From Candidatus Multivoradales bacterium (GTDB lineage: Bacteria; Acidobacteriota; Thermoanaerobaculia; Multivoradales; J023), in NCBI GenBank assembly GCA_965248925.1, contig CBDFLE010000005.1, forward strand, positions 416,001 to 480,000: a stretch of DNA of 64,000 nt, in the 5' to 3' direction. A program made the translations under genes and the position numbers. Under the pieces are notes generated by a model, which saw only the letters and a program-made list of their open reading frames with translations, did no database searches and was not told the origin of the DNA. Each line of letters begins with the position of its first letter. Within the stretch, counting starts at the first letter, position 1. Of this stretch, positions 2,542 to 49,616 are shown piece after piece.

Positions 2542-2581
2542 TTGACAACTGGCCCCCGACTGGCTATGGTCACTTGGCCAT
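2542..2581 (+). promoter_or_regulatory. Sigma70-like promoter with overlapping palindromic operator of the TA operon
   Basis: TTGACA (2542-2547), 17-nt spacer, TATGGT (2565-2570); imperfect palindrome ATGGTCA-CT-TGGCCAT (2566-2581) overlaps the -10, as expected for type II TA autorepression. Confidence 0.6.
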
Positions 2582-2897
2582 GACTATGAAAATCCCAAAC
2601 AAAGAGACCCTCAAAAATTCGCCGCCTGACTCGCGCCACACGGTTGCGACTGGTTGTAACGACGCCTATCCCCCTCTCGATCCACGGATAGCGGCCGGTG
2701 AGTTCAAAGCCAAGTGCTTGAGCATGATCGACGAGGTTGCCGAGACCGGCGCCGCCTACGTCATCACCAAGCGCGGCAAACCGATGGCGCGGCTGGTGCC
2801 CCTGGCTGAGCAGGAGCCCGCGGACCTGCTGGGCAGTGTGCTGTTCGAGGACGATCTTGTGTCGCCGATCGGTGAGCCCTGGGATGCAGAACAGTGA
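2574..2897 (+). CDS. Type II TA antitoxin, Phd/YefM family
   Basis: 'AGEFKAKCLSMIDEV...YVITKRGKPMARLVP' motif; GTGA overlap with the PIN gene; true start may lie downstream. Confidence 0.88.
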   Translation: MAMTMKIPNKETLKNSPPDSRHTVATGCNDAYPPLDPRIAAGEFKAKCLSMIDEVAETGAAYVITKRGKPMARLVPLAEQEPADLLGSVLFEDDLVSPIGEPWDAEQ

Positions 2898-3280
2898 TTG
2901 TGCTCGACACCCACGCCTGGATCTGGTGGACCTCGGCCCCCGACCGGCTGTCGAATGGCGCCCGCCGGGCGATTGATGAGGCTACCGCTCTCGGGGTGTC
3001 GGTGATCAGCTGCTGGGAGGTGGCCATGCTGGTCACCAAAGGGCGCTTGGGACTCGATCGTGGGGTTGATCTGTGGGTGCGCCAAGCCTTGGCCCGGCCG
3101 CGGGTGCGGCTGCTCGAGATTACGCCCAAGATCGCCGTTCAAGCCGCGGAGTTGAAAGGCAAAATCCCGGGCGACCCGGCCGATCGATTGATCACCGCCA
3201 CCTCGCTGGCGCGGCGCGCAGCGCTGATCACCCGCGACCGGATCTTGACAGACTACTCAGAGTTGAGGACGGTTTGGTAA
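2894..3280 (+). CDS. vapC: Type II TA toxin, PIN-domain VapC family
   Basis: 'MIVLDTHAWIWW', 'SVISCWEVAML', 'GDPADRLITAT', 'LITRD' PIN motifs. Confidence 0.9.
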   Translation: MIVLDTHAWIWWTSAPDRLSNGARRAIDEATALGVSVISCWEVAMLVTKGRLGLDRGVDLWVRQALARPRVRLLEITPKIAVQAAELKGKIPGDPADRLITATSLARRAALITRDRILTDYSELRTVW

Positions 3281-3356: not shown

Positions 3357-6300
3357 TCAGAACAGCCGGGCGATGGCTGTCAGCACCTTTTCTGGGTTCA
3401 GCCGGTCCGGTAGATCTTCGGCTTCGTAGAGGGCGTAACCTTCAACGAAGCGAAACCGTTCGAGTGCTTCGGGATCACCCATGACGTAGCCCTCGGAGGT
3501 CCAGGCCAGGTGATGGCCTTTGCGGTCCGACCAGAGGTGAGCCACCGGCTGGAGCAGCCTATCTTCGGCCGAGAACTCGGAAACAGCATACAGGCTCAAC
3601 ACACCATCTCTCCGGCCAATCACTAGTGCCCGACTGCTGGGGAGCCACGCTAGCGACGAAGGCGTGCTATCGAGCAGAGCGTCGGCCACCCTTCGGCCGG
3701 TCGTCGGGTTCCATAGTTTAACGGTTTTGTCAGAGGAGGCAGAAGCGAGGGTCTTGCCGTCCGGGCTGAAAGCAACGGCGCGGACTGGCCGTTTGTGTTG
3801 TTCGAGTGAGTGGATGAGCTTTGCGCGGCTTGGGTTCCATAGTTTGACGGTGTTGTCATGGGATGCAGAAGCGAGGGTCTTGCCGTCCGGGCTGAAAGCA
3901 ACGGCGGTGACCCAACCGTTGTGTTGTTCGAGTGAGTGGATGAGCTTTGCGCGGCTTGGGTTCCATAGTTTGACGGTGTTGTCATGGGATGCAGAAGCGA
4001 GGGTCTTGCCGTCCGGGCTGAAAGCAACGGCGCGGACCCAATCGTTGTGTTGTTCGAGTGAGCGGATGAGCTTTGCGCGGCTTGGGTTCCATAGTTTAAC
4101 GGTGTTGTCATGGGATGCAGAAGCGAGGGTCTTGCCGTCCGGGCTGAAAGCAACGGCGGTGACCCAACCGTTGTGTTGTTCGAGTGAGTGGATGAGCTTT
4201 GCGCGGTTTGGGTTCCATAGTTTGACGGTGTTGTCATGGGAGGCAGAAGCGAGGGTCTTGCCGTCCGGGCTGAAAGCAACGGCGGTGACTGGCCGTTTGT
4301 GTTGTTCGAGTGAGTGGATGAGCTTTGCGCGGCTTGGGTTCCATAGTTTGACGGTGTTGTCATGGGATGCAGAAGCGAGGGTCTTGCCGTCCGGGCTGAA
4401 AGCAACGGCGGTGACCCAACCGTTGTGTTGTTCGAGTGAGTGGATGAGCTTTGCGCGGCTTGGGTTCCATAGTTTGACGGTGTTGTCATTGGATGCAGAA
4501 GCGAGGGTCTTACCGTCCGGGCTGAAAGCAACGGCGGTGACCCAACCGTTGTGTTGTTCGAGTGAGCGGATGAGCTTTGCGCGGCTTGGGTTCCATAGTT
4601 TAACGGTTTTGTCATCGGAGGCTGAAGCGAGGGTTTTGCCGTCCGGGCTGAAAGCAACGGCGGTGACTGGCCGTTTGTGTTGTTCGAGTGAGTGGATGAG
4701 CTTTGCGCGACTTGGGTTCCATAGTCTAACGGTTTTGTCATTGGATGCAGAAGCGAGGGTCTTGCCGTCCGGGCTGAAAGCAACGGCGGTGACCCAACCG
4801 TTGTGTTGTTCGAGTGAGTGGATGAGCTTTGCGAGGCTTGGGTTCCATAGTTTGACGGTGTTGTCGTGGGATGCAGAAGCGAGGGTCTTGCCGTCCGGGC
4901 TGAAAGCAACGGCGGTGACTGGCCGTTTGTGTTGTTCGAGTGAGTGGATGAGCTTTGCGCGGCTTGGGTTCCATAGTTTGACGGTGTTGTCATGGGATGC
5001 AGAAGCGAGGGTCTTGCCGTCCGGGCTGAAAGCAACGGCGGTGACTGGCCGTTTGTGTTGTTCGAGTGAGTGGATGAGCTTTGCGCGGCTTGGGTTCCAT
5101 AGTTTGACGGTGTTGTCATTGGAGGCTGAAGCGAGGGTCTTTCCGTCCGGGCTGAATGCAAGTGACTTAACGGAGCCGCGATGTGCGGTGAGGCTGCTGA
5201 GCAGTGTGCCGGCGAGGGTATCCCAGAGGAGGATGGAACCCTCGGCTCCTGCGCTCGCCAGGATAGGCTCCTGAGGGTGGTAGGCCAATGCAAGGACTCT
5301 TCCTTGGTGGCCGTCTTTCAGCAGCGGCCGAAGGCCGCCAAAATGGCCGGTGCGCGCGGCCGGTAGGCCGCGCGCACCGAGTAGGGCGGTACCCAAGGTG
5401 CGCCTGGGCTCAAATCGCGCATCGCTCAGATCCGCTCCGGAGAACCGAGCGAAGCCAAGGTCGGCGGCCCGCAGGTCCGCACGCCGCAGATCCGCATGCC
5501 GCAGATCGGCGTGATCGAGACTTGCTCCGCCGAGGTTGGCGTCCGAGAGGTCGGCGCCTCGCAGGTCGGCCGAACTCAGGTCCGCCGAAGAAAGATTGGC
5601 ATCTAGCTTGGCACCTTGTAGCTGCGCCTGGCGCAAGTTGGCCTGCTTGAGGGATGCTTGAATCAAGTAGGCACCGCGCAGATCGGCGCCCTGCAAATCG
5701 CCTTGCTCCAGTCGCATTGGCCTGGAACCCATCGCTGCTTGGTGGAGGGCCGCCATCTCCCGTTGCACCGCCGCGAGATCGATCTCCTCTTCAGCCGCCC
5801 GGTCGCGAGGAGTGTCCGCTGGCAGGGCGCGGTCGCGGGCCAAAAAGTAGAGCAAGCGCAGGGCGTTCTCGCTGACTCGTTGCCGGTAGTCGCCCGCCAG
5901 CACCGCGCCGGCGAGTTTGGGGATGTTCTCGGCCTCCGGCCAACGCAAGAGGAAGAGCGCCACCTCGCGGGTCAGGGGTTTCAGATCGAGCACCGTGGCA
6001 TCGTCCTGCGCCAAGCCCTCCCGCACGGTGACCGCGACGAAATACTCCAGAAAAGAACGATGGATGAAGCGGTAATAGCCGCGGCTGTCGCGATGCAGGA
6101 AGAGGGCGGTGCGCACCTCGTAGTCGACCCTTTCCTTGTCCAGGTAGGAGAGTTCGCGTTTGACCCGATAGAAGTCGAGCGCCTTTTCGGCCAGCTCCTC
6201 GTAGTGAACTTCCTGCCGCGAGGCGTCCCACAGCATGCGCGCCAGGTAGTGGACCAGGGCGACCTTATGCTCTCGGGTGAGGGTCAGGCGCAGGTCATTA

Positions 6301-8498
6301 TGCTCGAACCACTTCTCGCAGTAGGCCTCGTAGAGGTCGGCGATCGATAGCGGAGCACCCTGGGCTCGCTCGACCGCCACCGCCAACGATTTGACGATCA
6401 GCTTGAGCAGGAAAGGTCGCTTGGCGAGATCGTCGAGATTGTAGGCGGCCTGGATCGTCCCCTTCAGCTCTTGCCAGTCGCCTGGCGGCGGTACCGCCTT
6501 TTGCAAGTAGACGTCGATCTGCGCCTGCTCGAACTCGCGCAGGTAGGCGATCTGGGCGCCGGGGCGTTCCCGCAAGATCTCGTAGAGGGCGGTAGCGCCA
6601 GCGGTGGAGCGCTCGGCGCCCGCTACTCCCAGCTGCTGAACCTCCTCGGGCTGGTCGCGAAAGTAGTGGGTCCGGCAGGTGAGAATCACTTTCGCCTCAC
6701 CCTCGACGGCGCGCAACATCTGGCGCAGGTTCTCGGCGTAGTGGCCGGGCTCGGTGTAAGCAATGGTCTCGTCGAAACCATCGAAGATCAGCACCAAATG
6801 GCCGGCGCGGTTCAAGAACAGCATTGCTTGTGGGTTGAACGACCGGGTAGAGAGTCGCTGGAAGTGATGGTTCAGCAGATTCTCGAGAGTCACCGTAGTC
6901 GAGCCGCTCTCGCGCAGGTCGATTAGCACCGGCGCTCGCTGGTCAGGATCCTGCTGGTGAGCCAGTGCCAGCAAACAGGCCAGGCGCTGGCAGAAGCTGC
7001 TCTTGCCGACCCCGAAGTCACCCAGCAGGGTCAAGACGCCGGAGGCCGGTTCCTCAAGCCAGGCGAGGACGCTCTCGGTCAGCCCGCGTGGCTTGACCAC
7101 CTCCCCTGGCCTGATATCTCGCTGCCAGACCGCCTCCTGCTCGACATAGAGCCGTTCGAGGTCGGTGCCCTGGAAATCGCGGATAGCTTGGTCGAGAGTG
7201 GGGGAGAGGTCGACCAGTGAACGCCGTAGCTCCTTGAAGCTCTTGAGCTCGACGAACAGCTCTTCAGCTACCGCACGTGCGTTGTTGGCGAACCCCTCAC
7301 GTGCGACCAAGATGGCTTGGTAGCGGCGCTTATCGTGCCGGCTGGCGGTCTCCACCTTGCGCGAGAATTTCACGACGTCGTCGATTCCCACCTTGCGCTT
7401 AGTGTCTTTGCACTCCACTAGAGCGTAGGTGGTGATCGGTCCCTGCAACTCCAAGCGCACGTCGAACTGCCGATCCAAGGTCTTGTCGTCCACCTCCGCC
7501 CGGTAGCCGAGCAGGCGGAACAGTTCGGCGACTTTTTCCTCGAAGCTCTTGGCGCGCTGAAGAATCTCTCGCCGGTCGTCCGCGGTGAGGCCGGGACGAA
7601 GCTGCCTTTCATCGCGGTCTTCATCGGCCTCAGCTAAGACTGAGGCACGCTCGCGCGTGAGCATGTCGAGGAGCGGTTGGTATTGGTCTCGGAGGTCTTC
7701 AGCGCTGCCCCCATCCAGGCTGGGTATCGCATCGGTCAGCAGCAGCGGAGGGTGCAGTGGTAGCTGCAGATTGGGTCCGAGGCCCGCCGCTCTCAGCTGG
7801 TCCAACTTGCTGTCCTTCAGTGCTTCGAGGTGCTTGTCTCCCGCCACCTCGGGAACCATGTTGGCCAGCAGGAATACCTTGATCTCGCCGTGCTTGCGGC
7901 GCTGCGCCTTGATCGCCGCGTGAGCTTGCCTGATTCCCTGGAGGTTCTGCTCATTGAGGTTGAAGACGATCACTACCAGGTCGGGGAGGATCAGCGTACT
8001 GATTGCGCCAAGGTCGGTAAGACCGGTTCGGGCGTCGATCAGCAAGTACTCGTAGCCGAGGTCGTCCAACAGGTGCTGCGCGATGCGCAGGAAGAAGGCG
8101 CCGCCCATCTCCCCATCTGCCAACAAGGGTTGCCAATCGATGCCGGCAAAGCGCTCGCGGTATCCCTGGTCGAAGGGGCAGGGGAGTAGAAAGTCGAGCC
8201 TGCCCCGGTTCTTGGCCAAGCCATCGGGTAGGTCCAGGCTGACGATTGAGCTTTTCAGCAAATCGAAAGGCACTTCCCGGCATTTCCCTGCCACGAACGC
8301 TTGGATAAGGTCTAGGGTGCCGCTCTCGAGCTTCTTGTCGACCTTGCGAAGTGCCGGGATACGCTGCATTCCGGGCGCTTCGAGATCCAGGTCCCAAACC
8401 AGGACTGAGTGGCCGCGTCCAGCCAGCTGAGCCGCCGTTTCGACCAGCGAGTGGGTGCGGCCCACGCCGCCTTTGAACGAGTAGAAAGTGACGATCAT
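3357..8498 (-). CDS. NLR-like multidomain protein: KGGVGR-variant ParA/MinD ATPase + Mrr-like PD-(D/E)xK nuclease + NACHT NTPase + pentapeptide repeats + 14 WD40 repeats
   Basis: N-term 'TFYSFKGGVGRT...DLDLEAPG...LIDARTG'; 'FEEKVAELFRLLGY...FDVRLE...LVECKD' (Mrr_cat-like); Walker A 'GDFGVGKS' and NACHT Walker B 'LIFDGFDE'; 'YRFIHRSFLEYF'; A(D/N)Lxx pentapeptides; 12 copies of 'AFSPDGKTLASAS' plus 2 degenerate WD40 repeats. Confidence 0.92.
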   Translation of the reverse strand: MIVTFYSFKGGVGRTHSLVETAAQLAGRGHSVLVWDLDLEAPGMQRIPALRKVDKKLESGTLDLIQAFVAGKCREVPFDLLKSSIVSLDLPDGLAKNRGRLDFLLPCPFDQGYRERFAGIDWQPLLADGEMGGAFFLRIAQHLLDDLGYEYLLIDARTGLTDLGAISTLILPDLVVIVFNLNEQNLQGIRQAHAAIKAQRRKHGEIKVFLLANMVPEVAGDKHLEALKDSKLDQLRAAGLGPNLQLPLHPPLLLTDAIPSLDGGSAEDLRDQYQPLLDMLTRERASVLAEADEDRDERQLRPGLTADDRREILQRAKSFEEKVAELFRLLGYRAEVDDKTLDRQFDVRLELQGPITTYALVECKDTKRKVGIDDVVKFSRKVETASRHDKRRYQAILVAREGFANNARAVAEELFVELKSFKELRRSLVDLSPTLDQAIRDFQGTDLERLYVEQEAVWQRDIRPGEVVKPRGLTESVLAWLEEPASGVLTLLGDFGVGKSSFCQRLACLLALAHQQDPDQRAPVLIDLRESGSTTVTLENLLNHHFQRLSTRSFNPQAMLFLNRAGHLVLIFDGFDETIAYTEPGHYAENLRQMLRAVEGEAKVILTCRTHYFRDQPEEVQQLGVAGAERSTAGATALYEILRERPGAQIAYLREFEQAQIDVYLQKAVPPPGDWQELKGTIQAAYNLDDLAKRPFLLKLIVKSLAVAVERAQGAPLSIADLYEAYCEKWFEHNDLRLTLTREHKVALVHYLARMLWDASRQEVHYEELAEKALDFYRVKRELSYLDKERVDYEVRTALFLHRDSRGYYRFIHRSFLEYFVAVTVREGLAQDDATVLDLKPLTREVALFLLRWPEAENIPKLAGAVLAGDYRQRVSENALRLLYFLARDRALPADTPRDRAAEEEIDLAAVQREMAALHQAAMGSRPMRLEQGDLQGADLRGAYLIQASLKQANLRQAQLQGAKLDANLSSADLSSADLRGADLSDANLGGASLDHADLRHADLRRADLRAADLGFARFSGADLSDARFEPRRTLGTALLGARGLPAARTGHFGGLRPLLKDGHQGRVLALAYHPQEPILASAGAEGSILLWDTLAGTLLSSLTAHRGSVKSLAFSPDGKTLASASNDNTVKLWNPSRAKLIHSLEQHKRPVTAVAFSPDGKTLASASHDNTVKLWNPSRAKLIHSLEQHKRPVTAVAFSPDGKTLASASHDNTVKLWNPSLAKLIHSLEQHNGWVTAVAFSPDGKTLASASNDKTVRLWNPSRAKLIHSLEQHKRPVTAVAFSPDGKTLASASDDKTVKLWNPSRAKLIRSLEQHNGWVTAVAFSPDGKTLASASNDNTVKLWNPSRAKLIHSLEQHNGWVTAVAFSPDGKTLASASHDNTVKLWNPSRAKLIHSLEQHKRPVTAVAFSPDGKTLASASHDNTVKLWNPNRAKLIHSLEQHNGWVTAVAFSPDGKTLASASHDNTVKLWNPSRAKLIRSLEQHNDWVRAVAFSPDGKTLASASHDNTVKLWNPSRAKLIHSLEQHNGWVTAVAFSPDGKTLASASHDNTVKLWNPSRAKLIHSLEQHKRPVRAVAFSPDGKTLASASSDKTVKLWNPTTGRRVADALLDSTPSSLAWLPSSRALVIGRRDGVLSLYAVSEFSAEDRLLQPVAHLWSDRKGHHLAWTSEGYVMGDPEALERFRFVEGYALYEAEDLPDRLNPEKVLTAIARLF
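3706..5156. repeat. Tandem array of ~11.5 near-identical 126-bp units encoding WD40 repeats
   Basis: 'gggttccatagt' recurs at 3706, 3832, 3958, ... every 126 nt; units differ by only a few nucleotides. Confidence 0.98.
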
Positions 8499-9349
8499 GC
8501 GGCTTTGGCGGTGTTAGACCAAGCCTGGCTCAGCGGCTTTTCAGGTGACAGGTTGCGAAGACGGTCATCATCGTCTTTGGCTTCGGCTGCTGCTACCACC
8601 CGCCGGTCGGAATTGCTCGGCGAGGCGGCCGTGTCGCGACTACAGATCGCGGTGGCCAATTGACTCGCCACCCAATCAGAGGGTGCGCCAAGCACTCGCA
8701 GTTCGCTTGCGACTTGTTGAGAGTTGTTGAGAGCCTTCGGCGAGTGCAGTAATTCCACCAAGTGCTCGACCCACGAAGGGCGGAAGCGCTCTTCGGCGAT
8801 CTCTCGCCCCTCCGGCCCCAATTCAATCTCCACCGTCCGGCCGACTCGTCTGCGAAGAATCAAATCGCCTTCTTCCAGCGTCCGCAGCAGATGGGAGAAG
8901 TTGGAGTCGGAGATACCCACTCGTTTCCGCAGGAGGGCGCGTTGGACAGGCCCATCTGCCGCCACCAGAATGCTCAGAATCTTCTCTCCGTGGCCAGAGG
9001 TGCCGCGCAGAAGGGTGTCGGTGAAGACCGGGTCAGAGCGCCGAGCTCCTTCGGTCAACAATTCGCAGTAGCCGTGCCAGGCGCCGTGGATGACGGGATC
9101 CAGGCCGCGAAGGACTTCTCCGACTTTGGAACTCAGCAGGCGAGCGAGCTGAAGAGCCTCGTCGAGTGCTTGGGCCCGAGTACCGACCTTGAGGAGCCAA
9201 AGCGCGCGCCCGATCAGCAGGCCATCGAGGGCATCGACCCGCTCACGGCGAGGATCGGCGACGAGCGCTTCGAAATCACCTCGAACCTCTGCGAAAGGAA
9301 CCTCTTGTAGGCCCGTAAGATCCAAACTCGGAAGAGAAGAATTCTGCAT
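8495..9349 (-). CDS. Winged helix-turn-helix (MarR/ArsR-like) domain protein with uncharacterised N-terminal helical region
   Basis: 'EKILSILVAADGPVQRALLRKRVGISDSNFSHLLRTLEEGDLILRRRVGRTVEIELGPEG'; stop overlaps the NLR start (ATGA); GGAG upstream. Confidence 0.75.
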   Translation of the reverse strand: MQNSSLPSLDLTGLQEVPFAEVRGDFEALVADPRRERVDALDGLLIGRALWLLKVGTRAQALDEALQLARLLSSKVGEVLRGLDPVIHGAWHGYCELLTEGARRSDPVFTDTLLRGTSGHGEKILSILVAADGPVQRALLRKRVGISDSNFSHLLRTLEEGDLILRRRVGRTVEIELGPEGREIAEERFRPSWVEHLVELLHSPKALNNSQQVASELRVLGAPSDWVASQLATAICSRDTAASPSNSDRRVVAAAEAKDDDDRLRNLSPEKPLSQAWSNTAKAA

Positions 9350-40696: not shown

Positions 40697-41299
40697 ATGG
40701 GAATGACCGTATTCGCAGAGTTGCCGCTGACGCCTTCTGGTCACCTCGGCCCCTACCGTCGGGCTGACTACGCCCGATTGCCGGACGAGCCACGCTGTGA
40801 GTTGATTTACGGGAGGCTGTATTTGAGTCCTAGTCCACTGTTGTTGCATCAGGTGATTGTTGCCGAGATCTGGCGCAGATTGCACGAAGTTGCTACTGCC
40901 ACTGGCGGTCTAGCGGCTTTGGCGCCGTTAGACGTACACCTCGCCGACCATTCCGTTGTGCAGCCAGATGTGCTCTACGTGGCGCCGGAAAACCGCGCCA
41001 TCTTGCAAGACTGGATCGAGGGCAACCCAGATCTGAGTGTCGAGGTGCTGTCGCCGGGTACCGCTCGCCGCGACCGCGGCGAGAAGCTCAAGCTCTATGC
41101 TGAAAGCGGCGTCCGGGAATATTGGATTGTCGACCCCGCGGAGCGGCAGATCGAGTTCTTCACCTTGCGCGGTGACGAGTTCGTCGTCGCCCTGCCGGCA
41201 GGCCAGACTTACCGCTCGCGGGTTCTGCCGGAGATTGAGTTCGATCTGGTCGATTTCTGGCGCAGCATCGAGCTAACGCTTCCCCGCAGCGTCGATTAG
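40697..41299 (+). CDS. Uma2-family endonuclease-like protein
   Basis: 'ELIYG..SPSP...HQ', 'VQPDV', 'PDLSVEVLSP', 'KLYAESGVREYWIVDP'. Confidence 0.9.
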   Translation: MGMTVFAELPLTPSGHLGPYRRADYARLPDEPRCELIYGRLYLSPSPLLLHQVIVAEIWRRLHEVATATGGLAALAPLDVHLADHSVVQPDVLYVAPENRAILQDWIEGNPDLSVEVLSPGTARRDRGEKLKLYAESGVREYWIVDPAERQIEFFTLRGDEFVVALPAGQTYRSRVLPEIEFDLVDFWRSIELTLPRSVD

Positions 41300-42835
41300 T
41301 ACTTTAAGATCCTCCTCCATGTCGCCGACCGAGTATCTTCGACCGCCTGCGGCTGACGCATGGTCGTGCGCTCTAATCATGGTGGAGCAGCGCCTCCAAC
41401 CCTCATGTGCGGTTTCCCCCAGCTGCTGCGTGTAGGTGACTTTGGGAAGCGCTCCCACCATCACGTTCCGCTCAAGTCGCCGAACGACACTGGCAAAAAG
41501 ACGCTCCTCGATAAATCGTTCCCATGTACTGCGCAAGCGTTCGTAGAAGTCTCGTCCTTTACTACGAAGGGCATCAACGTCCCCATTCTTTGACGCCTTT
41601 CCTGCGGCGTCAAGGATAATCTTGAGGAGATTTATCCGTTTATTCACGTTGCTGGCACCGAAGGGTACTTCAGCCTCTACAAAACCGACTGCATCATCGG
41701 TCGCTATCAGTGTTCGAAACTGACAATCAACGGTCTGAATTTTCTTGGCCTGCTCTCGTAGGTCGGCTAAGAACGCCAAGTCGTGAGTGAAGACGATGAC
41801 TTGGCGTTCTTTTGAAGCTCTAACAAGCCTGCGGGCGACGTGCTCGCGGACGCTGTGGTCAAGTGACGAGACAGGGTCATCGAAGATCAGTCCGGACGGA
41901 TCTTCACCCAACTGAAGCTCGGCAAGAAAGCAGGCCAGAGCTATAACCGTCCGTTCGCCTTCACTGAAAACTCTAGCCGCCTGGATATGTTTTAGTTTGG
42001 CGCTTACCAAAGGAGTAATCTCTACTCTTCCTTTTCTTGTTTTCTGGCCAAGCACCGGTGTTTGGCGGCGGAAGTGAAGAGATCGATACTCATTTTCGAG
42101 AGACGCTTCAAAACGACTCGTTATGTGCTTCCTGTGGAGCTTTGTTACCTTGCTCGAAGCAGCATGCGTATTGATGTTTTCGTATATATCCTTGAGGCGC
42201 TGTTGCTCTTTAGTCAGCTTGACGAAGTTCTCTGCAGCCTCGAGAGACTCTGATAGTTTTCTTCGAGTCATAAGATCAAGGTGCCTCATCTCAAGTTCTT
42301 TAAGTCGCAGCGCGGCTTCGGTGTCGCTATCCGGTAGAGCTTGTAGTTCCTTCTTTGTCGATCGATACTTGACACGAAGCATTTCCAAGGGAGTGCCGTC
42401 GATCTCGGGTAAGGGGCCAATCTTTGCCCCCTCCTGCTGGATAGAAAGGATCGCGTCCCTGCGAGCCGCAAGGGCTTTCATCAACTGGCGTATGTATTGT
42501 GGGAGGTGCTCGTCGGAGGAAACTATGGCTCTGTCTCCATCTGTGATCGAATCTGGAATATCATGAAGGCTATCGGCCAGTGACTTCAGCTGTTGGGCTG
42601 CTTTCTGTTGTGCCTCTGCGGCGGTCCCTTCCAGGTGCTGTTGGAACTTCGTTAGACGAGTAGCTGCTGCGTTGTCGAGGTCTTGCCAGCACAGAACGCA
42701 ACGCCCGTTTACGGACAAGGGCGTGCTGGACTCTGCTGTGTAGTCGAGAGAAACTACGAATTTACCCGCTGCTTCCAATAAGTCGAGCCAGACTCTGCCA
42801 CCAATCAAATCGGTTTGTATGGTTGAATCTCCGAT

Positions 42836-44108
42836 CACTGCTGTCCCGTTAACTTCCGACCATTACCAGTTGTCTTTCGTCTAGTCCTGGGATCGGCGGC
42901 GGCTCTCGTTTCAAGAGGGCCATGAGGTCGCGGCGCTCAAAGAGGTTCAATTGAAGGAGGCGCAAGGCCTCCCGTAAACTACTGGAAAGACGGTGCTTGT
43001 GCTTGATGAAAGCGAGCAATAGGTAGACGCACATGGCGATCCAAAGCTGAGTCAGCACGGCGTTGCGGCTGGTGCCGACGAAAGTCTTGATCTTCAGATT
43101 CTGCTTGATCCACTTGAAGAAGAGTTCAATTTGCCAACGTTCGTGGTAGATATCGGCAATGGTCTGAGGTGACAGGCGGAACAGGTTCGTCAAGAAATAG
43201 TAGATCTTGCCGGTCTCAGGGTCGCGATAGCCTACTCTCCGCAGAGGCATCGGGCAGTCACGACACGCCTTCACACCGGTCCATTCGATCGTTTGGTCGC
43301 TCATCAAACCCTTGGAACGATTGACTCTTCGACGTTCGGTCACGCGGTACTTGGCCCCGCGCTTCAGACGGGTCACAAAGAAAAGACCCTTCTCGCTCAG
43401 CTGACGAAACCAGCTGTAGCTGTTGTAACCACGATCACAAGCTACGATGCTTCCTCGTGGCAGCGTCAGGCTCTTGCAGCCCGCGATGTCACCTGTTTTT
43501 CCATCCGAGATCGCAACGAAGGCAGGCAAGTAGCCACCGTGATCCAACCCCACATGCAGCTTGATCGCTCCCTTGGTCGTACGAAACTTCGCCCACGGGA
43601 ATATCGACAGACAAAGGTCTATCACCGAGGCGTCAAGCGAGAACAAGCGGTTCTTGAACCGGAACGTATGCTTGGGCGCCACTGCTTGAGCACGGCCCAG
43701 AAGTCTCCCAAATAGCTCTTCAAAAAGGAGATAGGGCTTCTCTTCGTTGATCCGTGCCAAGTTGGATCGCGACAGGACTCGGCAGCCGAGATGGTAGAGC
43801 TTGTGCCGCTGCGCTCGTAGATTGTCAACGATGTCGCGCAAGCTAGAACGCCCGGACAGCTGGGCCATCATCAGAGCCACCAGCTGCGACCAGCGGCTCG
43901 CAGTGCGGAACTGGCGACCGGCGTGGTGGCGTTTTGCGAGGGCCTCGAATTCATGTCTCGAAATCAGTTGCAGTAGCTGGGCGAAGACGGTGCTATGATG
44001 TGCCAAGGCTCAGATCTCCCTTTGATTCAGCCGTTTAGCGATGACTGATTCTATCAAGACCAGGGAGGTTTGAGCCTATTTTTCTGCGAAGTTAACGGGA
44101 CAGCAGTG
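42836..44108 (-). mobile_element. IS4-family insertion sequence, 1273 bp, apparently intact
   Basis: Perfect 21-bp TIRs CACTGCTGTCCCGTTAACTTC (42836-42856 / 44088-44108); 9-bp TSD ATCTCCGAT (42827-42835 / 44109-44117). Confidence 0.97.
42849..44006 (-). CDS. IS4-family transposase (DUF4372 + DDE)
   Basis: 'STVFAQLL', 'LDASVI', 'DRGY', 'YHERWQIELFFKWIKQ' (YREK-like motif). Confidence 0.95.
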   Translation of the reverse strand: MAHHSTVFAQLLQLISRHEFEALAKRHHAGRQFRTASRWSQLVALMMAQLSGRSSLRDIVDNLRAQRHKLYHLGCRVLSRSNLARINEEKPYLLFEELFGRLLGRAQAVAPKHTFRFKNRLFSLDASVIDLCLSIFPWAKFRTTKGAIKLHVGLDHGGYLPAFVAISDGKTGDIAGCKSLTLPRGSIVACDRGYNSYSWFRQLSEKGLFFVTRLKRGAKYRVTERRRVNRSKGLMSDQTIEWTGVKACRDCPMPLRRVGYRDPETGKIYYFLTNLFRLSPQTIADIYHERWQIELFFKWIKQNLKIKTFVGTSRNAVLTQLWIAMCVYLLLAFIKHKHRLSSSLREALRLLQLNLFERRDLMALLKREPPPIPGLDERQLVMVGS

Positions 44109-45317
44109 ATCTCCGATAGTCTCTACTGCCCGCAAGGCCGCGTCTGCCATGGCGAGTGCTGAAGTAGCTGATAGCATGGCTTCATGCTGTGATTGTCCGA
44201 CTGTTGTCTCCCACTTAGCAATCCGCTTGGCGAGTGACTCTAGAGCGTTCATCTGTGCTTGTAGCTGTTCTCGTCGTAGAGACCGCGTGTGAAGTCTTGC
44301 TTTTGCGATAGATTTATCTAAGGTTTCAATCTCACGAGAGTCGTCCGAGTTCCACTGGGCAATCTCAGCCAAAGAGGAGAGTGTGGTTTCCGGCGATAGG
44401 TCGCGGACGAACCTGCCTGTAACTGTGTCGTTCTCCAGATTCTGTAGTGAATCCTTCTTAGGAGATGCAGCGCGGACAGCATCTGCGATGCTGTGTTTCA
44501 CGCGGTCAAGATCTTTTACGAAATTGGGAACCACGTCGAGACCGGCAGGCCCCTCGCCTAGACCGCCGCCGTGAAGGTATGAACGTGCGCATGCGCTGTC
44601 TAGGACTGCGAATTTGCCGACGGCAGATATCGGCGTCCCATCCTTCCATTCCACTGATTGTATACTTCCATCAGGCTCTTCGACGACAAATACAGCTTGT
44701 GCCGGAACTGACTGGCGGTTCTCCGCTCGGACATTTCCGAGAATATCTTCAGTCACTCGTGCTCTGTAGGCTTTCTTCAGAACTCGTGCATAGCCGGACT
44801 TGCCTGATCCATTATCGCCGTAAACTACAGTCAACTGCGGGCCAAAGGTAAGCTGCTGATCTCCTCGGAGGGCGTTGACATTTCTGAGGCTGTTCAGCTC
44901 GAGAAGAAGCATGCGATCTTCCACAGCAGCAGTAGATGGGAAATCGTCAACAGTGAGTGTTTCGTACTGTGGGGAGACTTGCTCTAGCTTTGCTACCGCA
45001 GAAATTGCTAGTTCTTCGATATCCTCGGATGAGAGAGTCTCGGAACGCAGCAAGCGCCTCAGCATTTCCTGCTGCCAGAGTGGCAGTTTCTTCCCCCAGT
45101 ACAGAATGTCACGATATACTTCGCGAGAGCAAATTTGGCTCCGGCTCTAATTGTTCTACTATTGCTCACGATTCGAATCTCCTAGACTCTTCAATGACGT
45201 TCTAGTTGCCGATTTCGTTGTGATGTTGCTCGCAGTTGGAACTAATTCAATTTGAACGATTGCGAAATCTGTTAGTTGCAGTCGCGGGATCGCTTAGAGT
45301 GGTTGATGCGGAGAATG

Positions 45318-46543: not shown

Positions 46544-48364
46544 CTACCCCTCGGCGACGGTGGATGGGGAGGGAATGAGTCGCGGTGCCGGCCGGTCGCC
46601 GGTGATTCCCCAGACCAACCTATCAATGCCGAAATCGTCAATGCCGCCACGCAGGTCGACCCAAGTGAATTGAGTCAGGAAGAGGGGCAGCTGGGGATCT
46701 CGGGCGGCGCCTGGGAGCAGCACAGGGATCACTGGCAGGCCGCGCCGAACGACTTCTGACAGCGAAGCGCGCATTTCTGGAATCTCCCACGGACCGAGAC
46801 CGTCTGGGCCGACGATCACCGCTGAACTACGCACGGTCTGGATGATCTCCTCGAGAGCCTCCTGCCATGGCTGGCCAGGCTCTAGCTCCCAGATGTCGAG
46901 CCAGGGGCGTAGCTGACGCTCCTTGAGCGCTTCGGCGAGAATGATGACCTGTGCCTTGTCGCGACTCGAATGGCTGAGGAAGCTATCGAAAGCGTCTGCC
47001 GCCATAGGTTCGGTGGAGAAACCACCCGTGCCCGGACGATGTTCCAACGCCGAGCCCACTCCCCGCTGGGGCAATGGCCGATGCGGCCTGCGGCGGCGAC
47101 GCTCGAGTACCAGCAACGAGGCGGTCATCAACACAATCGCCGCCAGCGGATAGGCCAAGTCCACCCAGATTCGCCCCCAGCGCATGGCCAAGATCGCCGC
47201 CGCCGTGGCTGCTGCTGCCAACTGCGTCGCTCGCACCAGCAAACGGCGCGGCCCAGCGCCGCGAGCATAGTGCAAAGCCAAGAGGTAGCAGAGCAGGAAG
47301 AGCAAGGGGAAGCACCAGCTCTTGGGTAGGTAGCGGAAAGTGTTGCCAGTGCGTAGGGTTTGCGCCGCCCAAGCGTGAACTTCGACCCCCTGGGCCGGGC
47401 CCCAGGGAGTGTCTACCCGATCGTCGGGAGAATCGGTGCCGAGCAACACAAAGCGACCACGCAGGCGGCTCCAATCGAGCTGCTGGAGGCTGAGCACCGG
47501 CACGCCACCGCTGGGTCGATGGAAGCGTAGCAGCGGTCCTGGCGGGCTGGGCGGTGGTGGACCGCCATTCAGCATCGTTGCCAGGCGGTTGCTCAGCGAA
47601 ACCCCATCGTCGAGCCGCTGCGTTACCATGCGTACCTTCAGGTCAGCTTCGCGATAGCCGCTGAGGTCGCCGAGACGGGATTCCAAGAGCAGCGGCCGCA
47701 AGCTCTTGTGCGGCTGTTGGCGTACCCAGCGGTCCTCTTGCCGCATCCGTCGGTAGCCGAAGATCACCGGCATGTCGGCCTTTTCGGCCTCTTGTAACAC
47801 ATGCCGCAGCAGTGCGTCCGATAGGGTCTTTCGTTCGAGGTAGTAGTCCAGAGCCAGGCCGCGAACACCGTGGTCGACCGCTTGCTGGATGATCTGCGCC
47901 AGGGTGCGTCGGAACTCGGCGAGGTTCTGGTCGCGCTTGAAGGGGAGGGTCAGCACCACCAGATCATCGAGCGGAGGCATCTTTGGCGCCACCCGATAGT
48001 GCCAATCACCGAGGAAGTTCAATCCCAGATGTCGTCTTGGCTCTTGCTCACCGAAAGTGCCTTGCAACTCGCGTTTGCCGGTCAAGAGGTCGCCGCTGGT
48101 GGCCACCGCCAGCAGCAGACAGAAGGTGAGGAAGAAGACCAAGAAGCCGTTGCCCAAGGCGCGGGGGCTGTCGCGTCGTGCCCAGTACCAGAGTACCGCC
48201 GAGCCTAGCGCTAGAGGCGACAGCAGGAGCAGTGCTTGGCCGGGTTGCTGCCACAGCGGGGCGACGCGGCGTTGTAACAAGACATCTACCGCCAGCGCGG
48301 GCAGCGCCAGCAAGAGCAGGCGAACCAGGTCGAGGCGCAGCCAAGCGAGTAGTGAACGTTGCAA
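46544..48364 (-). CDS. Membrane receptor: N-terminal TMs + CHASE2 domain + 3 TMs + C-terminal TIR domain
   Basis: CHASE2-like 'LALDYYL...DALL', 'LRGRFVLLG..DRVDTPWG...GVEVHA' followed by 3 TMs; TIR 'FDSFLSHSSRDK...WLDIWELEPGQPW...GPWEIPEM...VIPVLL'; start placed at TTG 48364, just after the upstream stop. Confidence 0.85.
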   Translation of the reverse strand: MQRSLLAWLRLDLVRLLLLALPALAVDVLLQRRVAPLWQQPGQALLLLSPLALGSAVLWYWARRDSPRALGNGFLVFFLTFCLLLAVATSGDLLTGKRELQGTFGEQEPRRHLGLNFLGDWHYRVAPKMPPLDDLVVLTLPFKRDQNLAEFRRTLAQIIQQAVDHGVRGLALDYYLERKTLSDALLRHVLQEAEKADMPVIFGYRRMRQEDRWVRQQPHKSLRPLLLESRLGDLSGYREADLKVRMVTQRLDDGVSLSNRLATMLNGGPPPPSPPGPLLRFHRPSGGVPVLSLQQLDWSRLRGRFVLLGTDSPDDRVDTPWGPAQGVEVHAWAAQTLRTGNTFRYLPKSWCFPLLFLLCYLLALHYARGAGPRRLLVRATQLAAAATAAAILAMRWGRIWVDLAYPLAAIVLMTASLLVLERRRRRPHRPLPQRGVGSALEHRPGTGGFSTEPMAADAFDSFLSHSSRDKAQVIILAEALKERQLRPWLDIWELEPGQPWQEALEEIIQTVRSSAVIVGPDGLGPWEIPEMRASLSEVVRRGLPVIPVLLPGAARDPQLPLFLTQFTWVDLRGGIDDFGIDRLVWGITGDRPAPRLIPSPSTVAEG

Positions 48365-48365
48365 T

Positions 48366-49616
48366 TCAGCGCGGCAGCTGCAAGTCGTGCAGGATTCGAC
48401 AGATGCGGAGTTCGGCGGCAGGTATCTTCTGCCCCCTCTTGACCAAGCGCAGGGCGCGGCTGGCATACGTCCCGGCGCGGCTATCGGTCCAGCCATCGAC
48501 GCCGCCGTAGGCTTGGGCCAGTCCGCAGTAGACCCGCGCCGTGGGCTCGCGCTTGGCTAGCTTGGTGAGCGCGGTCAAGGCAGCAGAGTAGTTCTGCTGA
48601 TCGAGCAAGGCCCAGGGGTTTGAGGCCAGCGGCTGAGCGAGTACGGCGGTTGGTAGCCGGTAGATCTGCGACTGGAACTGAGCCTTGGGTTGGTAAAGCT
48701 TTTCTTTCTGCGGTTCAGGGATAGCGGCCGGATCGATGCGGTAGCTTCGCAGCTTCACCTCGTCGTCGATCTCTGCTCTCTTCAGATTGTAGATCGCTGC
48801 CTTGCCGATCTTGAGATCGAGCTGAGTTTTGGCCAACTCCGCGCGCCCGGACGGATCGTCGGGCTTGCTGAGCACATTGGCGTGCAGAGCCTTGAGTTGT
48901 TCGATTTTCTGTTGGATGTCTCCCCTTGCAGTTGTGCCTGGGCTGCCTGGGATTTCCTCAGCGAAGTAACTCTTGGCCAGGTCGAGGCGGGCGTAGACTT
49001 TGGCGGCTCGCTGCGAGTGGGTTTTGTTTAGTTTGCCTCGGCTGGACTCCTTGCCATCCCAGCCCCAAGTTTCGCCAGTCTCTATCTGCCGTATCTCAGC
49101 GCTGATGCGTTGATTGTCTCGGTCACGACCCCGAACCCACAACTTGCCGTCGAAGACCGTCACGTTCTCCTGCACTCCACCCTGGGGATCCCGCTCTAGC
49201 CGGACAGCGTATTGGGTGCCTTCAGAGCCCAGCACCATACCGCCGGCGCGGACCTCGGTGGGGGCATCAGTGAGCACATCGAGCTGGCCACCGAGCAAGT
49301 TGACCGCGCAATCGGTCTCGCCGGGCGGGTTGATCAGCACCCGGAAGCGACCGGAAAAACGGAGCAGCGAAGTCTCGCCGCAGGATAGCTCGATGGCGGT
49401 TTCGCTGCTAATACTGCTCAGCAGATCGCCGATCTCCAGCTTGTCACCGAGGGACAACAGCTCAACCTCCGCGAAATCAGCAAACCGTTCAAGGCGTAGG
49501 TCGCTACTCCCTTCCAGCGGGGTGTCGCCGGCAGCCAGTGAGGTGATTTCGGCCTGCGGCCAGGCGGCGGTGGCAAGTAGCAAGCAAAGGGCGGAAAGTG
49601 AAAAATGACGAAGCAC
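48366..49616 (-). CDS. Exported FecR-like domain protein with C-terminal TPR-like helices
   Basis: GGAGG then GTG at 49616; signal peptide; 'GDLL...IEL', 'LGSEGTQYAV', 'VTVFDGKLWV' FecR-like strands. Confidence 0.7.
   Translation of the reverse strand: MLRHFSLSALCLLLATAAWPQAEITSLAAGDTPLEGSSDLRLERFADFAEVELLSLGDKLEIGDLLSSISSETAIELSCGETSLLRFSGRFRVLINPPGETDCAVNLLGGQLDVLTDAPTEVRAGGMVLGSEGTQYAVRLERDPQGGVQENVTVFDGKLWVRGRDRDNQRISAEIRQIETGETWGWDGKESSRGKLNKTHSQRAAKVYARLDLAKSYFAEEIPGSPGTTARGDIQQKIEQLKALHANVLSKPDDPSGRAELAKTQLDLKIGKAAIYNLKRAEIDDEVKLRSYRIDPAAIPEPQKEKLYQPKAQFQSQIYRLPTAVLAQPLASNPWALLDQQNYSAALTALTKLAKREPTARVYCGLAQAYGGVDGWTDSRAGTYASRALRLVKRGQKIPAAELRICRILHDLQLPR

Follow-up and report, generated by a model that had tools for sequence, protein, structure and literature searches.

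Eleven near-identical WD40 units with reticulate loop variation in a predicted NACHT protein of a Candidatus Multivoradales bacterium

How does a beta-propeller come to be assembled from blades that are almost the same, and what might be the use of the few residues at which they differ? The question is raised by a tandem array of 126-bp units in a 64,000-nucleotide stretch of the genome of a Candidatus Multivoradales bacterium (GCA_965248925.1, contig CBDFLE010000005.1, positions 416,001 to 480,000), called here the window, to which all coordinates refer. For near-identical WD40 blades on STAND NTPases two explanations are in print, fresh amplification from a single blade and concerted evolution with shuffling of units, and neither cites the mechanism of the other. 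An earlier note on this DNA had proposed a receptor of the fungal HET-E/HNWD kind, diversifying at its ligand face. The protein falls into a class that is already known, in which prokaryotic STAND NTPases carry WD40 propellers that are recently amplified or highly repetitive (WRAP, Highly-Repetitive WD40). We consider it probable that the array encodes the 11 internal blades of a WD40 double propeller with 14 blades in all, which would serve as C-terminal sensor in a bacterial NLR-like STAND protein of that class, that these blades are homogenised and their loops re-sorted within the gene, and that their faces bind an invader ligand.

The array occupies positions 3706-5161 (Tandem Repeats Finder: period 126, 11.6 copies, 93% matches, 0% indels, score 2482), far above chance expectation, and lies in a single minus-strand open reading frame identified from the list of reading frames and its translation (P0001, Table 1); the earlier count of about 11.5 near-identical units agrees with this. 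A hidden Markov model (HMM) of the unit places 14 units in an exact 42-residue register, with start residues 1043, 1085 and so on to 1589, and PF00400 matches 13 stretches (E 7e-173). Each of the 11 internal units, numbered 1 to 11 along the protein, has a counterpart elsewhere in the array to which it is 93-100% identical. Their mean identity to their own consensus is 0.937 (n = 11), above the minimum of 0.7 between the internal blades of a long series by which WRAP and Highly-Repetitive WD40 domains are characterised. The two units preceding them and the units following them are diverged. The WD40 D-H-S/T-W tetrad is complete in every internal unit (D2, W8, H22, S40) and the predicted structure is all-beta with four strands per unit, which together with the PF00400 matches characterises the units as WD40 repeats of a beta-propeller.

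Twenty-two of the 126 nucleotide columns are variable, spread over 15 codons. Amino-acid variation recurs at codon 1 (H/N/D), codon 3 (N/K) and codon 17 (H/R, two units), in codons 23-25, where KRP and NGW are distinguished by a 7-nt block and one unit carries NDW, and at codon 27, where T is replaced by R through ACC>CGC. The CGC codon is found in unit 9 (NDW) and unit 11 (KRP), the two backgrounds on which the note had seen it. Along the protein the loops follow in the order KRP, KRP, NGW, KRP, NGW, NGW, KRP, NGW, NDW, NGW, KRP, exactly as first read. The two motifs in which the differences had been said to concentrate, H-[KRP/NGW/NDW]-V-[T/R] and SAS-[H/N/D/S]-D-[N/K], do so, except that the S belongs to the half-diverged unit 12. 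Singleton nonsynonymous changes fall in codons 6, 11 and 12 and silent variants in codons 1, 5, 11, 35, 36, 40 and 41; GTT occurs in units 4, 5 and 9, and GCC in units 4, 7 and 11. The two loop alleles at codons 23-25, AAACGGCCA (KRP) and AACGGTTGG (NGW), have the pentamer AACGG in common with a one-base offset, and one of them may be derived from the other by a compensated frameshift; chance is also possible.

The positions that vary here also vary in other members of the family. Units were extracted with the HMM of the array's own units from the 120 homologues listed, and 36 proteins (P0001 included) were kept in which at least five ungapped units agree with the protein's own consensus at no fewer than 32 of the 42 residues, the other 84 having too few such units. 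A position was scored in a protein when a minor residue recurs there within that protein. By this measure recurrent variation is found at position 1 in 26 of the 36 proteins, at 3 in 23, at 23 in 16, at 24 in 19, at 25 in 26 and at 27 in 23, and at any remaining position in at most 11. When the hot set is defined from the other 35 proteins, all six positions are among the array's 10 nonsynonymous-variable codons (hypergeometric P = 4e-5).

An AlphaFold2 model of residues 1041-1713 (25-row alignment, mean pLDDT 88.7, pTM 0.63) shows about 56 propeller strands with one low-confidence break at model residues 316-320, and DSSP applied to this model places the strands of each unit at positions 5-9, 14-19, 26-31 and 38-42. 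Standard WD40 nomenclature calls them strands c, d, a and b, and the b-c and d-a loops form the top face. Positions 1-4 then correspond to the b-c loop and positions 20-25 to the d-a loop. In the model the six hot codons are located in these two loops and at the beginning of strand a, on the side conventionally taken as the WD40 ligand face. This mapping, which reaches the level of loops, agrees with the ligand-face placing suggested at the outset. The top-face hotspots defined by Wu et al. (2012), in the part of the article consulted, are R1 (the second residue of the [VLI]-R1-R2-[VLI] fingerprint), R1-2 and D-1; with V26-T27-A28-V29 and H1-D2 as landmarks, positions 27, 25 and 1 are these three. 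As the note had proposed, the 14 units fit two 7-bladed propellers, a predicted split taken from the HMM register, the model's secondary structure and the 14-blade match 2YMU, and not from coordinates.

The variants are distributed reticulately among the units. Many pairs of the 12 informative biallelic sites violate the four-gamete condition, for example the loop block with ACC/CGC, nt 15 (GTC/GTT) with the block, and nt 79-80 with nt 123 (GCA/GCC); the independent assortment of the silent markers GTT/GTC and GCA/GCC, already pointed out, is borne out by many such pairs. Read by hand, the four-gamete table gives no fewer than three recombination intervals, at nt 15-50, 75-79 and 80-123. The longest exact match, of 203 nt, connects units 6-7 with units 10-11, crosses a unit boundary and stops just before the T/R codon; unit 11 corresponds to unit 7 plus the CGC patch. 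The next, of 173 nt, connects units 1-2 with units 6-7. Two-unit segments have therefore been duplicated or converted, and the reticulate distribution indicates that units exchanged or co-duplicated segments. To this extent the proposed recombination or gene conversion between units holds, conversion specifically being one option among several: unequal crossing-over, slippage and conversion would all be able to produce the pattern, and the sequences fit each of them, as a past or an ongoing process.

The internal blades are kept near-identical within this lineage. Across the homologues, 233 of 319 internal units have their nearest neighbour within their own protein, against 35 of 71 units from the first two places and 14 of 34 last units. 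Since 24 of 36 full-length homologues (1650-1800 residues) have 13-15 unit hits, blade number is conserved, and the total of 14 in P0001 falls within their mode of 13-14. None of the units in those 36 proteins exceeds 64% identity to an internal unit of P0001. The closest orthologue, L016 (labelled Acidobacteria metagenome-assembled genome (MAG), 68% in the N-terminal part), falls outside this length range. Its unit differs from the array consensus at 19 codons, 10 with nonsynonymous and 9 with synonymous changes, and at 14 nucleotide sites the 11 units agree with each other and all differ from the L016 unit. The L016 gene (L016:4851-8690) is a complete open reading frame of 1280 residues with only two internal near-identical units followed by the same C-terminal tail; its junctions are irregular, one junction unit being shortened and another lacking a codon. 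This two-unit array is probably a short-read collapse and possibly a real contraction. Three genomes of the same family, G003, G016 and G009 (L096, L097 and L098), carry NACHT-pentapeptide-WD40 genes with fully differentiated blades, and those of G016 and G009 match up blade by blade. With differentiated and near-identical arrays both present in the family, near-identity has therefore been reached or maintained lineage by lineage. As DNA the unit is present at a single locus of the genome (7.98 Mb, 6 contigs), its remaining WD40 genes are at most 36% identical, and neither DNA matches nor these WD40 genes revealed paralogue donors for unit exchange in the 7.98-Mb genome.

Proportions of nonsynonymous (pN) and synonymous (pS) differences were counted by the Nei-Gojobori method (NG86) over the 55 unit pairs, a sample too small for codon models. 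Over all 42 codons pN is 0.0503 and pS 0.0941 (pN/pS 0.53). The six hot codons give pN 0.274 and pS 0.346 (pN/pS 0.79), the other 36 codons pN 0.0107 and pS 0.060 (pN/pS 0.18). In L020 (labelled Bryobacteraceae, 9 units), the only other near-identical array analysed at the DNA level, the arrays of G003, G016 and G009 being differentiated, pN/pS is 1.28 at hot codons compared with 0.15 for the rest. Hot and cold codons differ strongly, yet omega is about 1, a result compatible with diversifying selection that does not demonstrate it. The note's diversifying sensor, for which it had suggested a per-codon dN/dS comparison, is therefore retained as regards the concentration of changes at hot codons (0.79 versus 0.18) and the hot/cold contrast, and not as regards an omega above 1, which NG86 counts over 11 units do not give.

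What is said here of published systems refers to the parts of these sources that were consulted. The best solved match to the propeller is 2ymu_A (51% identity, Foldseek E 4e-61, phmmer E 4e-222), entitled 'Structure of a highly repetitive propeller structure'. According to Pereira and Lupas (2022), 2YMU is the WRAP domain of Nostoc punctiforme Npun_R6612, located C-terminal to a STAND ATPase, with 14 blades in two 7-bladed propellers and 10 point mutations, none of them synonymous. The same authors implicate WRAP in bacterial innate immunity and attribute its blades to amplification in the very recent past, which they regard as independent even where homologues exceed 80% identity; the terms 'recombination', 'gene conversion' and 'concerted' are absent from the 2022 propeller survey (0 occurrences each). 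P0001 resembles the Npun_R6612 WRAP in its 14 blades, near-identical inside and with diverged edge strands, in its predicted pair of 7-bladed propellers and in its position C-terminal to a STAND NTPase, here the NACHT domain of residues 489-623. The main variable residue of Npun_R6612, in HSSSV[W/R/N]G, aligns with unit position 27. However, where Npun_R6612 has no synonymous changes, the array studied here has synonymous differences (pS 0.06-0.09), a 7-nt dimorphic block and four-gamete violations. Its unit is 42 residues long instead of 41 in 2YMU, its N-terminus carries a KGGVGR ATPase, an Mrr nuclease, a NACHT and pentapeptides while Npun_R6612 is described, in the text consulted, only with a STAND ATPase, and its partner gene codes for a 284-aa DUF7343 protein rather than for a TIR-STAND protein. 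The Highly-Repetitive WD40 proteins of Hu et al. (2017, Sci Rep) are mostly prokaryotic and fungal; their predicted hotspot sites are diverse, the rest of the repeats is conserved, and the repeats were read as young duplications. P0001 shares with them an identity far over the 0.7 cut-off, many repeats and a complete DHSW tetrad, although Hu et al. describe a class and not this protein, 'NACHT' is found 0 times in their main text, and exchange between units is not analysed in the part consulted. For bacteria, both the phenomenon and its interpretation as immune have been published under these two names.

Dyrka et al. (2014) describe the repeats of the Podospora nwd family as highly conserved inside each protein and as evolving in concert, with shuffling both within a gene and among paralogues and with four positions of each repeat under positive selection; repeat shuffling has been proposed as a source of diversity in Podospora HNWD and other fungal NLRs. 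P0001 resembles the Podospora anserina HNWD proteins (het-e, het-d, het-r) in combining a NACHT with internally conserved WD40 repeats that have few variable surface positions each. It differs in its bacterial host, its presumed nuclease effector, the lack of a paralogue family for exchange and the lack of a HET domain (none among the 14 Pfam families matched in residues 1-1080 at E <=0.01), and whereas positive selection and repeat-number polymorphism are documented in Podospora HNWD, hot-codon pN/pS is 0.79 here. The likeness to HET-E/HNWD is correct as an analogy and not as family membership: the protein would work like the fungal receptors without being one of them. Diversity-generating retroelements target some bacterial STAND sensors, and such an element was considered here; the variation lies between tandem units and not between a template and a variable region, and no search for a reverse transcriptase or a template repeat was made.

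Alignment and domain scans recover in P0001 the layout of a bacterial NACHT protein: the Walker A and B motifs are intact, the presumed effector precedes the NACHT domain and the sensor follows at the C-terminus (Table 1). In an alignment of 12 N-terminal regions (A2), the NACHT residues G493, D494, G496, G498, K499, D573, D576 and E577 are invariant. The P-loop of the N-terminal ATPase is KGGVGR, with R in place of the K of GK[ST], and K9, G10, G11, V12, G13 and R14 are invariant in 12 of 12 aligned sequences. In the nuclease, E362 and C363 are invariant and D346 and K364 nearly so; because of this it looks catalytically competent as judged from its motif. The title of the matching family PF22722 is 'NACHT-associated inactive REase 1'. 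A 15-bp tandem repeat (5469-5507) lies inside the pentapeptide region. Restriction endonuclease (REase) effectors as well as beta-propeller and pentapeptide sensor repeats are listed in a bacterial NACHT preprint, in which bNACHT25 is an Mrr-like REase-NACHT defence protein. P0001 has the bNACHT order of effector, NACHT and C-terminal repeat sensor and, as in bNACHT25, an Mrr-like REase effector; unlike the described bNACHTs it has an additional N-terminal KGGVGR ATPase, and no tested bNACHT of the same architecture was found in the text consulted. WD40 propellers are among the defence-associated sensors of a 2026 STAND survey, and the five-module architecture may already be listed in the supplementary tables of the bNACHT and STAND surveys.

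These elements suggest how the system might operate. Intragenic unequal crossing-over, slippage or gene conversion would homogenise the scaffold of the blades, and the same process would re-sort the two loop cassettes, KRP and NGW, together with a few point variants. The top faces would bind a ligand that is a protein, its most likely source being a phage or some other invader, and this binding would release NACHT oligomerisation and activate the nuclease. A role in defence is also suggested by the presence of a full-length orthologue in only 1 of 40 relatives, by the adjoining Phd/PIN pair and, by analogy, by Mrr-NACHT proteins, which are proven antiphage effectors in other bacteria.

Several results weigh against this reading of a homogenised and re-sorted immune sensor, and most of them lend themselves to another explanation. 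The ligand, the defence role and the activation of the nuclease are all steps that we infer. The protein cluster has one member on one contig, with no second genome of the genus to provide population data. Reads were available as Logan contigs from four runs of one sample, possibly the one behind the genome assembly and hence not independent support; these contigs end at 3768 and 5090, and none spans the array. Collapsed repeat unitigs (window 3788-5131) are about 1.3-fold deeper than the assembly predicts in both X1 and X2, which makes the true unit number uncertain. In X1 (flank depth 5.85-7.08) the 65-nt unitig has a depth of 43.7, a ratio of 6.7 where 4.9 is predicted from mean 31-mer multiplicities in the assembled array, and the 121-nt unitig a depth of 53.5 (8.2 observed, 6.2 predicted); in X2 (flank about 17.3) the corresponding depths are 108.7 (6.3 and 4.9) and 132.7 (7.6 and 6.0). 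Both the unspanned stretch and the discrepant ratios would be expected if the assembler had made the length or order of the array, the real gene having fewer or different units, and L016, from a short-read MAG, shows with its two internal units and irregular junctions how such arrays mis-assemble. Such an artefact is nevertheless highly improbable here. The repeat unitigs reach 6.3-8.2 times the flank depth, at or above the 11-unit prediction; the reads therefore hold many copies, at least as many as assembled, and collapse is a likelier error than inflation. The array has 0% indels in one open frame of 1713 residues, its 14 units equal the modal number of its full-length homologues, and the 7.98-Mb genome is in only 6 contigs. 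The excess may stem from population variants of different length, from words that relatives in the metagenome share with the array or from an assembly that is slightly collapsed.

Two further results that count against intragenic homogenisation and re-sorting are the three same-family relatives, whose differentiated blades indicate that the family functions without near-identical ones, and the hot-codon ratios of 0.79 here and 1.28 in L020, since relaxed constraint on surface loops would explain the concentration of changes equally well. Both suit recent stepwise amplification alone, in which the blades were re-amplified in place from one or two and later acquired tolerated point mutations, with no ongoing shuffling and no adaptive meaning: the hot-codon ratio in the array is not above 1, and the relatives would represent the other end of a cycle of amplification and differentiation. 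This account is the one in print for Npun_R6612 and its relatives (Pereira and Lupas), and the 203-nt and 173-nt identities fit two-unit duplication, by which KRP and NGW could become interleaved without gene conversion. We regard it as unlikely, while taking it seriously, for the synonymous differences (pS 0.06 outside the hot codons), unlike the situation in Npun_R6612, indicate that the array is not brand new, and the four-gamete violations span the 7-nt block, the 2-nt ACC/CGC change and silent markers, so that a pure duplication tree needs the dinucleotide change twice. Moreover, each of the six positions is variable in 16-26 of the 36 arrays, a pattern narrower than surface loops in general: the a-b and c-d loops vary far less. 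A combinatorial code would go further than the re-sorting that we favour: KRP/NGW cassettes, T/R at R1 and H/N/D at D-1 would be re-sorted over 11 identical scaffolds, and cells of one population would differ in blade order, blade number and ligand specificity. We think this improbable; if it were true, a bacterium would possess a somatic-like receptor repertoire without a diversity-generating retroelement, and the depth excess of about 1.3-fold would be length heterogeneity in the population. The last alternative removes the immune function and makes the protein a housekeeping or developmental signalling scaffold for a constant cellular partner, its repeats being a by-product of slippage-prone DNA. 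It draws on further points against our reading: PADLOC names no defence system for the 1713-aa protein, its matches being a partial HEAT-ARM_XIII (WD40 part), PDC-M28B (first 60 residues) and the Mrr part of ZorD, and the neighbours other than those of Table 1 are housekeeping genes (leucyl-tRNA synthetase, DAHP synthase, MurJ). In addition, the architecture comes with no experimental data, a literature search on 'KGGVGR' returned nothing relevant to this ATPase, and the conserved upstream DUF7343 gene suggests ordinary regulation. We judge a housekeeping scaffold quite improbable all the same, given the sporadic distribution (full-length matches in 1 of 40 genomes), the fusion to NACHT of a nuclease with conserved catalytic residues, the classing of Mrr-NACHT and WD40-STAND proteins as defence-associated in the publications consulted, and the location of the variation, precisely on the hotspots of partner binding, which would stay fixed if the partner were constant.

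Table 1. Position and support of the features of P0001 and of its adjoining genes in the window
Feature	Residues	Position	Strand	Support and remarks
Whole gene P0001, 1713 aa: KGGVGR ATPase, Mrr-type nuclease, NACHT, pentapeptide repeats, 14 WD40, C-terminal tail		3357..8498	-	List of open reading frames, domain scans
14 WD40 units, predicted two 7-bladed propellers	1043-1630	3609..5372	-	Unit HMM; PF00400; AlphaFold2 model; best solved match 2ymu_A
11 near-identical internal WD40 units	1127-1588	3735..5120	-	Variation mainly in unit codons 1, 3, 23-25, 27
KGGVGR-motif variant ParA/MinD-like ATPase	2-194	7917..8495	-	NF047398 E 8.5e-34; 117.5 bits (cut-off 90)
Mrr-type PD-(D/E)xK nuclease, presumed effector	317-426	7221..7550	-	PF04471 E 8.9e-11; PF22722 NA-iREase1 E 5.6e-7
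NACHT NTPase	489-623	6630..7034	-	PF05729 E 1.8e-10; Walker A GDFGVGKS, Walker B DGFDE
Pentapeptide-repeat region between NACHT and WD40	~907-1047	5358..5780	-	PF00805 E 2.9e-25; NCBIfam pentapeptide models
C-terminal tail, non-repeated	1631-1713	3360..3608	-	Strands and helices in the model; aligns by eye with the L016 tail
284-aa gene, DUF7343 domain		8495..9349	-	PF24034 E 2.5e-6; directly upstream of the NLR gene
Phd/YefM antitoxin (107 aa) and PIN-domain toxin (128 aa)		2574..3280	+	4-nt overlap; convergent with the 3' end of the NLR gene

The stop codon of the DUF7343 gene overlaps the start codon of the NLR gene by 4 nt, and because of this overlap the two are probably co-transcribed. 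A DUF7343 gene is also found directly upstream of homologues in L016 (58%), L007 (38%), L018 (28%) and L027 (30%), that is at 4 of 89 loci, the window's own six excluded. Its product, which we take to have a winged-helix DNA-binding fold, may be a regulator or a partner in a two-gene cassette. Among the 40 relatives only G008 has a full-length orthologue (match to residues 1-1079, 55%), on a contig that stops 199 nt into the WD40 region. The homologues are labelled Acidobacteria, Planctomycetes, Proteobacteria and others. Four of them (P0058, P0060, P0063 and P0064), 51-54% identical over the Mrr-NACHT-pentapeptide part, lack a WD40 propeller and carry condensation and AMP-binding domains of non-ribosomal peptide synthetase type (PF00668, PF00501), which is an unusual exchange of sensor or effector. 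The KGGVGR module alone (query residues ~2-200) heads many other proteins (L017, L019 and L021-L095 except L041 and L045), in records labelled Streptomyces, Kitasatospora, Frankia, Micromonospora, Planctomycetes and others; 561 of 576 pattern matches were confirmed as relatives, making it a widespread N-terminal module with no described role.

Elsewhere in the window a low-GC patch (41273-45065, minus strand; 0.54 versus about 0.62) contains an apparently split SMC/ABC-like AAA ATPase, with its C-terminal part at 41273-42838, its N-terminal part at 44076-45065 and a DDE transposase gene (DUF4372 and DDE_Tnp_1) between them at 42849-44006. The patch is flanked by a 650-aa CHASE2-TIR protein (46544-48496, minus strand) and a Uma2-family putative endonuclease (40697-41299, plus strand), and this region may be a second defence-type locus.

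These findings contain no new principle. Their added value is modest and consists of a reticulate array, a clear dimorphic loop cassette and an uncharacterised five-module architecture with a conserved partner gene. The architecture is widespread, and its N-terminal KGGVGR ATPase and its conserved upstream partner are both without a described role. For the receptor itself, an adaptive re-coding of specificity by repeat shuffling is a hypothesis. The array is old enough to have accumulated silent differences and a dimorphic loop block, and hence shows reticulation between its units, which makes it well suited as a test, in bacteria, for separating fresh amplification of a single blade from concerted evolution with shuffling.

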